Shown piece after piece: positions 10,335 to 63,037 of a stretch of 64,000 bases of DNA (position 1 is its first letter; the number at the start of each line of letters is the position of its first letter). The translations under genes and the position numbers were made by a program. Where the stretch lies: NCBI GenBank assembly GCA_030408505.1, contig JAUHQI010000002.1, positions 34,674 through 98,673 of the forward strand, in the 5' to 3' direction. The notes under the pieces were generated by a model. The model was not told where the DNA came from. It saw only the letters and a list, made by a program, of their open reading frames with translations, and made no database searches. The DNA is from Candidatus Sacchlamyda saccharinae (GTDB lineage: Bacteria > Chlamydiota > Chlamydiia > Chlamydiales > Rhabdochlamydiaceae).

Positions 10335-11062
10335 CCTGGAAAATAAAACTTCTCATTTTTTGGAATGTGCTTGGCATCATTCTATTTACGAGCCTCTTCG
10401 CTTCTCCCATTTGGAACCACATCGATCCCACCTTGTTCCGCTTTTTCAACCACCCCTTGAGAGATTCTCAGGCCCTTCGACTTTTTTGGGCACTAGCTAA
10501 CCATAGACTTGCCGACTGGTTTGAGGATTTGTGCATTCTGGGATTTTATATTGTCGCTTACTACAAAGCCGCAAAGGGCTTCAGGGAAAAACGGGCAGCG
10601 CAGCTCATTTTCTGCATCCTTTTTACTGCCTTTACGATTTTACTCATCAATAGGTTCGTTTGTCGCGACATTCTAAAGCTTAGACGATCCAGCCCTACAT
10701 TGGTTTTACACGACTCTGTCTATCTCTCGGATTTTCTCTCTTGGATTCGAGTGAAAGTTGATTCGACAAAAAGCTTTCCCGGAGACCATGCTACGACGGC
10801 ACTAATGTTTGCTTGCAGTTATGCCTACTTCGTAAGGGGGAAGCTTGCTCTCTTAGCGCTTCTCTATGGAGCCTTCTTGTGCTTGCCACGCCTCATCGTA
10901 GGCGCTCACTGGCCGTCCGATTTGTTTGTCGGCAGCGGCTGCATCGTGATCTTTTCGCTAAGCTGGGCCTTTTGCACGCCCCTCGCAACAAAATGCGTAG
11001 AGGCGATTGAGAACATACTTTCTAAAAAGAAAAAGAAAAATCAAAGCGTGGCTCACCAATAG
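10331..11062 (+). CDS. PAP2-superfamily membrane phosphatase
   Basis: 243 aa, polytopic. It carries PAP2 signature blocks SFPGDH and GAHWPSD. 4-nt overlap with lptG. Confidence 0.7.
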   Translation: MTWKIKLLIFWNVLGIILFTSLFASPIWNHIDPTLFRFFNHPLRDSQALRLFWALANHRLADWFEDLCILGFYIVAYYKAAKGFREKRAAQLIFCILFTAFTILLINRFVCRDILKLRRSSPTLVLHDSVYLSDFLSWIRVKVDSTKSFPGDHATTALMFACSYAYFVRGKLALLALLYGAFLCLPRLIVGAHWPSDLFVGSGCIVIFSLSWAFCTPLATKCVEAIENILSKKKKKNQSVAHQ

Positions 11063-11960
11063 CAGCTGACTGGGCTATTGAAGAACTCAGAAAGATCGCA
11101 AAATCATACCAAGCGTGGACCGCTACACTCTCTTGTAGAGACTGATTTTTATAAGTCAGCCATCCAAAATAGGCACCAGCTGCAGAGAGATAGGGAACTA
11201 TGAAGGTATAGTAGCGCCTTTGCTCATCTGGAGCTAGCTCACTCGCGTTTGGAATATGCATCAATCCAAATGCAACCGAGGAAAGAGCAATCCCAACCGC
11301 GGGGCTTGTGGTCTCAGAGATCGCAGACTGCAAAAACCCTCTGAATAGAGTCTCCTCCCCAATACTTACGGGAAAAGCATAAGCGGGATGTAGGTTTTGT
11401 GGAGCCATATGGATATGCTCTTCTATTCCATTTGGGAAAGCCAATTGTGACAATACAGATCCAACGACCAAAGAACCGAGTATCCCACCCCAAACCTCGG
11501 GCTTCTTCAACACTGCCCATCGAAAAGGGGCCCAAGCAAGATCACCAAAACTATCTTGCGGCATCTTATAGGAATAATTTTCTCTACCATTGAAATTTCT
11601 AGCATCTCTATAGGCCGAGTAAATTCCATAGGAACTCACTGCACTTAAAGCTAAAAGGTCTCCTGCGAGATAGGGCTCAAAAAAGGAAAACTGCGAAAGT
11701 CCAATCCCCACGCCTGTGCTTCCCATCAGAGCTCCAGCCATCCCATACTCCCCAAGATACGTATGTCCAAGCCCCGGCAAGATAGCAGAAAGAGTAACAG
11801 CGATCGCGGGACTTTTTGTCTGAGGGACAAACTCAACAATAGGAAGATCTACATCAAAAGAAGATGAGGTCGATTGTGATAAAAATTCTTGCTCCAGCTC
11901 TTCTCCATAAATGAGGGTACTTGATAGAGCAAAAAGAGAAAACGCATAGGATAATTTCAT
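11022..11960 (-). CDS. CPBP-family (CAAX/Abi) intramembrane glutamic protease
   Basis: Motifs GEETLFRGF (EExxxR), FGLMH (FxxxH) and HAWYD. N-terminal signal sequence. Confidence 0.75.
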   Translation of the reverse strand: MKLSYAFSLFALSSTLIYGEELEQEFLSQSTSSSFDVDLPIVEFVPQTKSPAIAVTLSAILPGLGHTYLGEYGMAGALMGSTGVGIGLSQFSFFEPYLAGDLLALSAVSSYGIYSAYRDARNFNGRENYSYKMPQDSFGDLAWAPFRWAVLKKPEVWGGILGSLVVGSVLSQLAFPNGIEEHIHMAPQNLHPAYAFPVSIGEETLFRGFLQSAISETTSPAVGIALSSVAFGLMHIPNASELAPDEQRRYYTFIVPYLSAAGAYFGWLTYKNQSLQESVAVHAWYDFAIFLSSSIAQSAAIGEPRFDFSFSF

Positions 11961-17436: not shown

Positions 17437-17470
17437 GAAGAAGATTTTTTAGGAATTTAAAATGTAATCA

Positions 17471-17603
17471 AGGGCCACTTAGGTTTTTTGCATGGCGATC
17501 CTTTAGTCGCCATGTCCAGCAACTCCATCGTCTTGAGCTATTCTGGTAATGAGAAAGCGGAGCGACCCGTAGGATCGCCCCGCAGAAAACCTATAGAGGC
17601 CCT
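17471..17603 (+). ncRNA. Mini copy of an unclassified structured intergenic element (family shared with 35166-35561)
   Basis: It shares termini (AGGGCC...GGCCCT), the loop ATCCTTTRGTC, GTCCAGC, CGTCTTGAGCTATT, AAGCGGAGC and GCAGAAAACCTAT with the 35.2-kb element. It has a 12-bp basal stem (17480-17491 / 17582-17593) with one G.U. It lies between convergent genes. Strand is inferred from G.U wobble counts. Confidence 0.4.
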
Positions 17604-17621
17604 GACATTAGGTCTCTTGAT

Positions 17622-35131: not shown

Positions 35132-35165
35132 GAAAATATTTGGGAATGTTTTCAAGATGTTATGC

Positions 35166-35561
35166 TAGGGCCGCTATCCTTTCTTTTGCGAGATAATCCT
35201 TTGGTCATCTCGTCCAGCGCTAACGCGTCTTGAGCTATTTAGACTTCGGCTGCAAAAGCATTAAGGCGGGACTACGCCCACCTTCATGCCCTTTTGCAGG
35301 GCCAGATAAAAACAAGTAAGCGCTTATTTGCATTTGAACTGGCCCTGCGAGCGACTTGAAAGGGGGCGGAGTTCCCCTTGAAAGCTCGAGCAGCCGATGG
35401 CTATTATGGCAATGGAAAATTGCCCCGTTCGATCGGGCCATCAGTGTTTTACACGGGGCCCGGAGTAAGGGGTGATTTGCCGAAGTCAGAATAGCTCAAG
35501 TAAGCGGAGCTACCGGACGCAGCAACTGAAATTGCTGCGCAGAAAACCTATTGAGGCCCTA
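35166..35561 (+). ncRNA. Large unclassified structured intergenic element (candidate ncRNA or non-autonomous mobile element)
   Basis: GC-rich relative to its flanks. Terminal complementarity TAGGGCC/GGCCCTA. 22-nt long-range stem 35229-35250 / 35479-35500. Three-way junction at 35396-35442. 8-bp hairpin at 35518-35539. It shares 5' and 3' modules with 17471-17603. It lies between convergent genes and has no credible ORF. Confidence 0.45.
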
Positions 35562-35600
35562 CCAAAACAATCCGACTGGTCTTCACTCCTTCCCCCTACC

Positions 35601-47888: not shown

Positions 47889-48180
47889 AGAACTTTTCTT
47901 TTGTTGGCAAAGGCAGATATTCGTAAGCACGGAAAAGCAAATTTTTCAATTCCTCAAGGAAAGGGTATCTTGGATTGAATTGATAAATTCTTGTCTTTCC
48001 CTGCAAGAAGCTAACTAATACACCTGCGTACTCTAATTTATCTAAGGTATTCTGGAAACCCGATAACGCCGAATCAAAGTTGTTCGACAATCTAGTAGCA
48101 TAACAAGATTCATTATTCAACAGGTAAAACAAAATCTTCTCAATATTCTTATTCCCGAAGAGCCGCTCGAGCATATCCAC
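47839..48180 (-). CDS. Winged-helix DNA-binding protein (putative antitoxin/autoregulator)
   Basis: 113 aa. KILFYLLNNESCYATRLSNNFDSALSGFQNTLDKLEYAGVLVSFLQGKTRIY fits an ArsR/MarR-like wHTH, and the tail is basic. It lies directly upstream of, and overlaps, the NTase gene. Confidence 0.6.
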   Translation of the reverse strand: MDMLERLFGNKNIEKILFYLLNNESCYATRLSNNFDSALSGFQNTLDKLEYAGVLVSFLQGKTRIYQFNPRYPFLEELKNLLFRAYEYLPLPTKEKFYEKKIRKRPRRKGKPI

Positions 48181-48182
48181 CC

Positions 48183-48276
48183 TAATTTATGGTTATATAA
48201 CCACATTATATGGTTAATACTAATTTCACGTCAACCACCATAATTTATGGTTGCATAACCACAAATCATGGTGGTT
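48183..48276. promoter_or_regulatory. Repeat/palindrome operator region in the divergent promoter upstream of the wHTH-NTase pair
   Basis: Two 23-nt direct repeats: TAATTTATGGTTATATAACCACA (48183-48205) and TAATTTATGGTTGCATAACCACA (48241-48263). Each contains a TGGTTnnnnAACCA palindrome. A 9-bp inverted repeat AACCACCAT/ATGGTGGTT (48233-48241 / 48268-48276) brackets the second one. Confidence 0.6.
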
Positions 48277-60840: not shown

Positions 60841-60845
60841 CTCAT

Positions 60846-60918
60846 GCTGGTGTAGCTCAATTGGTAGAGCACCCGACTTGTAATCGGACGGTTGAGGGTT
60901 CAATTCCTTTCGCCAGCA
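60846..60918 (+). tRNA. tRNA-Thr (anticodon UGU)
   Basis: GCTGGTGTAGCTCAATTGGTAGAGCACCCGACTTGTAATCGGACGGTTGAGGGTTCAATTCCTTTCGCCAGCA folds as a cloverleaf with anticodon loop CTTGTAA. Confidence 0.9.
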
Positions 60919-60925
60919 TTCTTCT

Positions 60926-61086
60926 AAACTCAACTTGCCCCTTATCTTTTTCAAGGGCGTAAGCGAGCTGAAGAGATACAAGTTTTGCGAGGAAGGGAAG
61001 GTGTAAAAACACCTTTCCAACGAGGAAACCGCCGTAGATCTTTCGCGCAGATAGCCCATGGAAAAGAGAGGGGGCAAGTTGAGTTT
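60926..61086 (+). other. Long-range stem (16 bp perfect, extendable to ~26 bp) enclosing ~110 nt in the tRNA-Thr/tRNA-Tyr spacer
   Basis: AAACTCAACTTGCCCC (60926-60941) is the exact reverse complement of GGGGCAAGTTGAGTTT (61071-61086). Pairing continues inward (TTATCTTTTT / GAAAAGAGAG) with one mismatch and U.G pairs. There is an internal hairpin GGAAGGTGT-AAAA-ACACCTTTCC. Confidence 0.6.
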
Positions 61087-61089
61087 TTA

Positions 61090-61171
61090 GGGGGTGTCGC
61101 ATAGCGGCAATTGCAAGGGACTGTAAATCCCTCGACTTCGGTCTCCGTTGGTTCGAGTCCAACCGCCCCCA
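61090..61171 (+). tRNA. tRNA-Tyr (anticodon GUA, long variable arm)
   Basis: GGGGGTGTCGCATAGCGGCAATTGCAAGGGACTGTAAATCCCTCGACTTCGGTCTCCGTTGGTTCGAGTCCAACCGCCCCCA. Anticodon loop CTGTAAA and a 14-nt variable arm hairpin. Confidence 0.9.
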
Positions 61172-62586: not shown

Positions 62587-63033
62587 TGGTGTATGGAATG
62601 AACCCAAATAAAGGTATTCGTTTATTCTTGGATGACGACATTGATTCCCCTATAAGAAAAGAACTTTTCCAAGGGTACGACGTTTGGGTACCAAATGCAC
62701 CAGCGGCAATAAAACTTCTCGAACAAGGGAACGTTGTTCAGGCATCTTTAAGATCACGATCTTGGGCCTGAAGAGGCAGGAACTGGCTATGATGTTGCTA
62801 TACCCAAACCAATTCAAAACTTGGGTTTTAGCAAGGAAGCTCCTCAAGTTTTTTAGGAACGAAGAGCTCCCGTGTTCATGGACACGGCGCGATGAGTTGA
62901 TAGGAAATTTGAGAAAAAGCTGACAAAGTGGCGCATTCATTCTGCAAACCCTGTTGGCGGGAAGCATATGATTGCAGCATTATCTAATGCAGATAGAAAC
63001 TGGGATCTTCATGAAAAGAAAAAGGGACTCTGA
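62586..63033 (+). pseudogene. Frameshifted cyclic-phosphate-processing receiver (cREC)-domain gene
   Basis: Frame a reads MVYGMNPNKGIRLFLDDDIDSP...KLLEQGNVVQASL. After an extra A at ~62749 the conserved continuation DHDLGPEEAGTGYDVA lies in another frame. The C-terminal block IHSANPVGGKHMIAAL lies in a third frame and ends at 63033. Confidence 0.65.
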
Positions 63034-63037
63034 TGAA

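Follow-up and report, generated by a model that had tools for sequence, protein, structure and literature searches.

ERIC sequences occur in a form of about 127 bp and in longer forms that carry extra internal DNA, elements of the IS200/IS605 type have asymmetric left and right ends and insert beside a fixed tetra- or pentanucleotide, and the palindromic elements of Rickettsia typically lie in-frame inside ORFs and are translated. MITEs are small non-coding palindromes beside genes, whose presence is polymorphic and which are transcribed with their neighbours and fold into hairpins (PMC3733652). By definition they have TIRs of 15-30 bp and short target duplications; REPs measure 20-40 bp and have one end marked by a GTAG or CGTC tag (PMC3733652). 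The Rickettsia palindromic elements are mentioned in the same source (PMC3733652). A literature search on MITEs or palindromic repeats in chlamydiae found nothing relevant.

Here, we describe a 133-nt sequence (the mini element) located between miaB and a convergent membrane-protein gene in the window, that is, the whole 64-kb stretch of DNA that was analysed. Its size and non-coding character agree with the 70-300 bp of MITEs, its ends correspond to TIRs of 15-30 bp (the terminal 33 nt are 85% complementary and the end box is found family-wide), and the presence or absence of such elements differs at orthologous sites of three loci; the short target duplication that also belongs to the definition was not found. 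We consider it most probable (at roughly 0.55) that the mini element belongs, as a non-coding copy with internal deletions, to a family of palindromic insertion elements found in environmental Chlamydiota, which would be non-autonomous and MITE/REPIN-like.

The mini element and its large relative

The family is built from a module of ~225 nt, termed U (5'-GGCCCTG...GCAGAAAACCTATAGAGGCCCT-3', all arms aligned in one orientation). Full elements are inverted doublets U'-U with the 3' ends of U outward, and solo U copies also occur. The features of the window (coordinates, strand, description) are as follows.

17437-17621, plus: miaB spacer, 185 nt, from the miaB stop (17436) to the stop (17622) of the 176-aa membrane-protein gene on the minus strand; without a counterpart in relatives
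17471-17603, plus: mini element, a 133-nt imperfect palindrome AGGGCC...GGCCCT, terminal 33 nt 85% self-complementary
17471-17552, minus: mini 5' arm; its minus strand equals the 3'-terminal ~80 nt of module U, from the box CCAGAATAGCTCAAGAC..GCTGGAC through hairpin C to the end box
17491-17514, plus: hairpin 1 (hairpin C of the mini 5' arm), CATGGCGA / TCCTTTAG / TCGCCATG
17548-17603, plus: mini 3' arm, with the AAGCGGAGC box, hairpin C (17557-17583), and the 22-nt end box GCAGAAAACCTATAGAGGCCCT (17582-17603)
35132-35600, plus: permease spacer, 469 nt, from the gene of a SAM/SAH-transporter-like EamA permease to a 173-aa gene; missing from the closest relatives
35167-35561, plus: large element, in which a truncated U' and a full U form an inverted doublet
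35167-35304, minus: large-element 5' arm, module U without the ~90-nt P3-P5 domain (nhmmer: 35250-35167 matches U 139-220 and 35304-35244 matches U 2-61)
35340-35561, plus: large-element 3' arm, module U in full with P1/P2, P3-P5, hairpin C, and end box (nhmmer: matches U 2-220 with E=3.4e-55)

An earlier note, made from the sequence of the window, had listed blocks common to 17471-17603 and 35167-35561 in the same order, and these blocks were indeed found there and nowhere else in the 64 kb. The 22-nt 3' block (GCAGAAAACCTAT[AT]GAGGCCCT) has two matches in the window and none more at up to three mismatches, with a chance expectation of 0 (100 shuffles), and CGTCTTGAGCTATT is present exactly in the mini element and the large copy, its only two occurrences in the window. 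In pairwise BLAST, the 5' parts of the two elements align with 63/90 identities (E=1e-8) and the 3' ends with 26/30 (E=4e-6). Furthermore, the mini 5' arm aligns with the reverse complement of the large-copy 3' arm (53/76, E=8e-8), from which it follows that the elements are long imperfect palindromes and not a one-way string of blocks.

The basal stem of the mini element (17480-17491 / 17582-17593) has 12 bp with one T.G (U.G in RNA), just as the earlier note described it. Hairpin 1 is in register with the large-copy hairpin at 35188-35211, and four of its eight pairs are changed on both sides with pairing kept (A-T>G-C, T-A>A-T, G-C>A-T, and C-G>T-A, mini versus large copy); the compensatory changes proposed for this stem are thus real, and they are general across the arms of the family. 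Two other details of the earlier description did not hold. The supposedly conserved loop of this hairpin is common to the two window copies only, the loops of other members being different at the same position, and the 3' hairpin that was thought to be of unrelated sequence is a homologous hairpin found in every family arm. The fold of the mini element has z scores of -6.2 and -6.15 on the two strands, and none of 200 shuffles was as good.

When the window was searched with a module-U profile (nhmmer), the minus strand of the mini element (17552-17471) matched U positions 140-220 with E=1.6e-8, and a profile of the terminal segment gave E=1.1e-14. The mini element covers only U-profile positions ~140-220 in its 5' arm and ~187-220 in its 3' arm. 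It retains the outer ~65-85 nt per arm, with the 22-nt end box and the adjacent covarying hairpin on both arms, while only the 5' arm has the CTCAAGAC...GGAC box; of the consensus structure of U, hairpin C alone is kept. The 133 nt contain no ORF of at least 60 aa, and a sigma-70 scan found no promoter-like site (a -10-like ATGT[AT]AT before AGGGCC is likewise without a supported promoter). As judged from these alignments, the mini element can be described as a non-coding doublet from which both cores (helices P1-P5) have been deleted.

The 3' arm of the large copy, which is a full U, has an MFE of -89.4 kcal/mol (z=-4.6), and the single promoter-like site of the large copy is located inside U. 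The earlier note had considered a MITE-like element with shared termini and variable cargo. Insertion is borne out by the loci described below; the cargo is not, as the ~250-nt centre of the large copy is the conserved core of the family and the mini element a deletion derivative.

Insertion loci and empty orthologous sites

The miaB and 176-aa membrane-protein genes overlap by 4 nt (a common TTAA) in L002/L003/L004 (MiaB 90% at the amino acid level) and in L005 (81%). Likewise, the EamA permease gene overlaps the next convergent gene in L037 (90%) and L039 (84%), where the window has 469 extra nt. At the permease locus of L041 and L043, the spacers are short and of unrelated sequence. A third empty site is provided by the region upstream of rluB, which measures 805 nt in L033 and 58 nt in L052 (PiT 81%). 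A check for empty sites had been proposed in the earlier note, and at both window loci the orthologous sites of the relatives are empty, which points to insertion or mobility and not to a conserved housekeeping RNA. The flanking genes share 80-83% nucleotide identity with those of the closest relatives, so the insertions are lineage-specific and not necessarily young.

The DNA that is new relative to the relatives exceeds the palindrome. At the mini element it comprises 185 nt (17437-17621) instead of the 133 nt given in the earlier note, i.e., 34 and 18 nt more on the two sides, and at L033 it exceeds the palindrome by ~150 and 190 nt. AGGGCC and GGCCCT are therefore only the putative ends of the mobile unit. 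In the flanks of seven copies, no duplicated di- to decanucleotide was found at the AGGGCC/GGCCCT boundaries. A long target duplication, with the spacer as a decayed copy of the 3' end of the opposite gene, was also considered and rejected (shuffle p ~0.19, 0.66, and 0.18, with one of four at ~0.015). Comparison of the left spacers of the mini and large elements gave p ~0.035 for homology extending beyond the elements, which is suggestive only.

The two elements fill two of the three convergent-gene gaps of more than 150 nt in the window. The third (62587-63037, 451 nt) contains no ORF of at least 110 aa, no copy of the family, and no similarity to U. Pfam scans of 30 window ORFs outside the syntenic block revealed housekeeping families only, with no transposase, recombinase, or RNA-guided nuclease among them. 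The remaining window is syntenic with relatives whose genes carry annotation, and the window as a whole represents a compact, ordinary chromosomal stretch. Its MiaB protein is identical to one encoded by a Simkaniaceae (Chlamydiota) MAG.

Other palindromic DNA was observed at both junctions. In a Simkaniaceae-like lineage (L040, 11345-11543), the miaB junction holds a 199-nt spacer of unrelated REP-like hairpins (CCCGCCCTAAAGGACGGGG, GGGAGGGGTTTCGTACCCCTCCC, and CCGGCCCTAAAGGGCCAGG), and palindromic DNA seems to have landed repeatedly at the miaB/membrane-protein junction. On the same contig, a related, larger element occupies the permease junction (L038, 79%) among other palindromes, flanked by a 55-nt direct repeat. 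This U-family element is nested in other repeats over 10881-11826, comprising a ~160-nt palindrome (10881-11042) from which the permease gene derives its final codons and its stop, outer inverted repeats of 52 nt (11018-11069 / 11744-11795, 90%), and the 55-nt direct repeat (10882-10936 = 11772-11826, 93%).

Occurrence of the family

A degenerate end-box pattern searched against metagenomes yielded 31 loci, among which five are true relatives (L009, L014, L022, L028, and L033). Two of the five, L009 and L033, could be placed in the Chlamydiota by their flanking proteins. Family copies are found in unrelated housekeeping contexts, namely upstream of prmA, rluB (rluB/phoU/pit), and sulP; the statement of the earlier note that such elements lie always in convergent-gene gaps is thus not valid for the family. 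The forms in which module U was encountered outside the window are listed below.

L033: complete inverted doublet U'-U, 463 nt, end-to-end self-complementary
L022: solo U
L049/L050: intact U with the partner arm reduced to a 46-nt stump
L038: element with one arm broken by ~150 nt

The arms decay via internal deletion and insertion, and the element tips are the best-conserved portion across the family. Moreover, contigs of six independent assemblies end inside U at different positions (L009/L047, L046, L048, L051, L028, and L014). Assemblies are expected to break at repeats, which suggests that U is present in multiple copies in those genomes. Directly 3' of the U doublet of L033, another hairpin of ~165 nt was observed (1101-1265, ATCCAACTTGTCCCCTATC ... 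GATAGAGGGCAAGTTGGAT), which over its first 30 nt is similar to 35568-35598, in the spacer to the right of the large window copy, with p ~0.04, again suggestive only.

No copy was detected in plasmid records, phage records, or viral contigs with two patterns, and a phage or plasmid origin is accordingly unsupported. An exact 19-base pattern searched in 185,579 species-representative genomes likewise gave no family copy; the sole match of CAGAAAACCTATNGAGGCCC in the genome collection lies inside a Cytophagales gene and was discarded as chance. The other 25 matches of the 21-nt pattern show no further likeness to the elements (blastn, nhmmer), and L035 was dismissed as a chance coding match. The end-box pattern strikes coding DNA by chance at L001 (4794-4813) and L035 (653-674), in proteins with ...QKTY(R/G)GP...; the latter has a repeated WQKTYGG-type motif, a caveat for pattern searches with the end box. 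Profile searches of ~456 kb (the window and the fetched loci, including those that bear copies) revealed no further copies, and the copy number is apparently low, as the 64 kb contain two copies and the remaining loci retrieved for relatives contain none. Genes for a transposase, RAYT, TnpB, or recombinase were not found near any copy. From these comparisons, the family appears as a set of palindromic insertion elements that is sporadic in environmental chlamydiae (Chlamydiota).

Structure and strand of module U

RNAalifold applied to nine arms gave 41 consensus pairs in nine helices, with 93.9% of cells paired. Compensatory double changes were found in 27 of the 41 pairs, compared with 11.5 +/- 2.4 in column shuffles (none of 500 reached 27) and with 6-12 pairs in controls whose partners were slid by 1-3 columns. 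The covariation that the earlier note saw in two copies hence did not vanish in a larger alignment; it grew to this 41-pair structure, 27 pairs of which covary. Hairpin C, which adjoins the end box, is present in all 12 arms examined with differing stems and loops. Long unpaired stretches are conserved as well, including the 22-nt 3' tail.

When pair sets were chosen without G.U on either strand, the U strand showed 8-12 G.U versus one A.C, and in six of six copies the U strand is more stable than its complement. The strand-specific G.U excess together with this stability implies that the U fold is selected as a single strand (RNA or ssDNA), the strand running from the centre of the doublet to its outer end. 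Identity between the two arms of an element is 63% in L033 and 68-71% in the window copies, compared with 57-83% between genomes. Because arms of the same element are no more alike than arms of different genomes, the selected fold is the local U fold and not the long hairpin, and rod pairing of the two arms was rejected as the selected structure.

Several known classes were considered for U and discarded. Coding potential was rejected since the inward ORFs of L033 and L022 lack conservation and indels of 1-2 nt break the frame between copies. Only tRNAs pass the gathering thresholds of Rfam 15 in the whole window, the best sub-threshold hits on the two elements at E<=10 reach 15-17 bits against cut-offs of 61-113, and nothing was found on the elements of the five related loci at E<=5. 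A 6S-like RNA was dismissed for lack of synteny and of a model match, a riboswitch or leader because the downstream genes are unrelated, and group I/II introns and ribozymes because no model matched.

Proposed origin and alternative explanations

An origin of the mini element from mobile DNA is argued for by the insertion polymorphism at three loci (miaB, permease, and rluB upstream region), and by the dispersed non-syntenic copies, the palindromic build, the conserved tips, the decay by internal deletion, and the absence of coding capacity. The ancestral unit would be the folded ~225-nt module U, and the full element two inverted U with their 3' ends outward. The family would spread non-autonomously, moved in trans by a protein that reads the end box and the hairpin, probably as a folded single strand in the manner of REPIN/RAYT or IS200/IS605-type ends; recognition of a single strand is suggested by the 8-12 G.U versus one A.C and by the better fold of the U strand in six of six copies. 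For the mini element, an end box and adjacent hairpin on both arms would suffice for movement, or else the element would be a dead relic of a full one. In its present place it would be co-transcribed with miaB as well as with the membrane-protein gene, and on either strand it would form a hairpin of about -60 kcal/mol that separates the two converging transcription units. This separation is probably a side effect and not a selected function, and the likeliest role of the mini element today is a passive one, that of a hairpin of high stability within the 3' regions of the two transcripts that converge here. The weak points of a mobile origin are the missing target duplication, the uncertain ends, the low apparent copy number, and the lack of a partner enzyme among the loci seen. 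To our knowledge, known transposases need far less than a 225-nt module with 41 conserved pairs per end. The arms of L033 are only 63% alike and yet both keep the fold, as if U itself were under selection. In its size, covariation, and strand bias, U exceeds the needs of a transposase-binding end, which leaves room for the rival view of U as an RNA with a function of its own; a mobile element and a functional RNA are compatible, not exclusive. Of the structured RNA and the MITE-like element between which the earlier note had hesitated, each is partly borne out, the former by the covariation and the latter by the empty orthologous sites.

It is possible, though doubtful, that module U is in the first place a structured ncRNA, transcribed from the centre outward (5'-GGCCCUG...GAGGCCCU-3') and serving in regulation, in protein binding, or as the RNA partner of a mobility enzyme. 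The doublets would then be by-products and the mini element a pseudogene-like relic, left with just the last hairpin and 3' tail from two copies of U and without an RNA function of its own. The 41 consensus pairs with 27 double changes (0/500 shuffles) would be readily understood in this way, as would the strand-specific G.U excess with a U strand that is always the stabler, the conserved unpaired stretches including the 22-nt tail, and the fact that arms of the same element fold alike while being as diverged as copies of different genomes. A solo U (L022) and a U that stays intact where its partner arm is cut to 46 nt (L049/L050) also suit an RNA unit. However, neither a convincing promoter before U nor an intrinsic terminator behind it was revealed by scans and inspection by eye, Rfam gave no matching family even up to E<=10, and U is not syntenic and is missing from close relatives. 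The unrelated downstream genes argue against a cis-regulator of one pathway, covariation can arise in a propagating selfish element without host-level RNA function, and the location of the mini element in newly inserted DNA is left unexplained. Rather improbable, in our estimate, is the further proposal that U provides the RNA part of a mobility system of Chlamydiota that has so far escaped recognition. It may be an outward, end-encoded RNA like the omega or bridge RNAs that is used by a protein encoded elsewhere, or it may be the template of a non-autonomous retroelement, where snap-back second-strand synthesis would yield the inverted U'-U doublets, the centre of the doublet possibly corresponding to the 5' end of the RNA and the outer ends to its 3' end. 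The mini element would then be a minimal substrate consisting of the recognition end only.

The hairpins of the two spacers might also be bidirectional 3'-end structures (terminator, insulator, or mRNA stabiliser) that evolved or were recruited locally and resemble each other through common function. Both window copies do lie between convergent genes that overlap in relatives, the hairpins are very stable on both strands, the minus strand of the mini element has one terminator-like site (17583-17557, followed by TTTCTCATTA), and the miaB junction of the L040 lineage holds hairpins of unrelated REP-like sequence. On the other hand, the terminator scans did not exceed shuffles (one site versus 0.6, and two sites versus 0.9), the main stems lack a following U-tract, and homologous copies precede genes that are arranged divergently or in tandem. 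The sequences of different genomes are homologous over 220 nt (E down to 1e-56), which means common descent and not convergence; a local origin is very unlikely. Chance likeness, or a local duplication limited to the two window loci, has a probability close to nil: only two copies exist in the 64 kb, but the end box is expected 0 times, BLAST gave E between 1e-8 and 4e-6 although the search space was tiny, and the idea is refuted by homologues on five or more other metagenomic contigs, of which two were placed in the Chlamydiota. Neither of the outcomes that the earlier note had named as fatal to its proposal, a restriction to two loci and a loss of the covariation, occurred, the family being found in other chlamydial genomes.

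Other repeats in the window

Three further repeats of the window were observed. A 79-nt direct repeat (3229-3307 / 4018-4096, 92% identical, 789 nt apart), one copy of which includes the 3' end of an ftsH-like gene (4018-6756, minus strand), brackets a 184-aa ORF without a Pfam match beside a DUF4143/AAA_14 ATPase gene (1984-3150), and the arrangement resembles what an element would leave behind on integrating and duplicating the 3' end of ftsH. A 33-nt inverted repeat (60926-60958 / 61054-61086, 88% complementary) around 95 nt sits exactly between tRNA-Thr (60845-60919) and tRNA-Tyr (61090-61171) and may serve in processing or represent a further small insert of palindromic DNA. Finally, two 38-nt direct repeats (48174-48272, 82%), each with the palindrome TATGGTTATATAACCACAT, lie upstream of a CMD / DUF1622 / DUF4396 group and look like tandem operator sites.

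Relation to known systems

The genomes of environmental chlamydiae are compact, with frequent overlaps between convergent genes, and the elements described here wedge spacer DNA and hairpins between such genes while leaving them intact. Module U combines unusually clear covariation with a strand-specific signal and matches no curated RNA family. If it acts as RNA, it would represent a new class of structured RNA tied to mobile DNA; if it acts as folded ssDNA, no bacterial miniature element known would have a structured end nearly as large. The mini element is a natural deletion mutant in this respect and shows that ~65-85 nt per end survive the loss of the core. With regard to structured RNAs, module U has a covariation-backed fold and shows no convincing promoter and terminator of its own and no conserved position.

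The ends of IS200/IS605 elements, PATEs, and TnpB/IscB omega-RNAs share with the U family a sub-terminal hairpin at a fixed distance of ~22 nt from the boundary and no apparent target duplication. Right-end (omega/re) RNAs are moreover comparable to U as structured, RNA-sized modules that point outward and whose 3' end lies exactly at the element boundary. Unlike in IS200/IS605, the ends of the U family are inverted repeats, so that the asymmetric ends of IS200/IS605 PATEs and omega-RNA systems are lacking. Their target motif and neighbouring gene are lacking too, as the left flanks of the copies (ATCA, TGCT, TTAA, and GATT) have no common motif, tnpA, tnpB, and iscB are present in none of the loci, and Rfam models such as HEARO gave no match. 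We know of no IS whose ends match those of the U family.

The likeness to REPIN/RAYT systems lies in a mobile entity made of two inverted hairpin units, with singlets also occurring, and recognition of a folded single strand, as in REPINs, would account for the strand-specific pairing signal of U. U is ~10 times longer than a REP (unit ~225 nt, or ~65-85 nt in the mini element), ends in ...GAGGCCCT with AGGGCC / GGCCCT at the boundaries in place of GTAG/CGTC, and has a copy number far under that of typical REPIN populations; the 64-kb window contains no RAYT gene. With the Rickettsia palindromic elements, the U family has in common the spread of palindromes in a compact, obligate-intracellular genome at or into gene ends that leaves the genes intact, and differs in that its elements are intergenic and not coding.

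ERIC/IRU and the MITEs (Correia/NEMIS, RUP, YPAL, and Nezha) resemble the U family as small, non-coding, intergenic, imperfect palindromes with polymorphic occupancy. Unlike MITEs, the U family has a unit of ~225 nt per end with 41 pairs (27 of them covarying), no target duplication seen, and a low apparent copy number. The ~127-bp ERIC form and its longer counterparts, in turn, resemble the mini element and the large copy described here.
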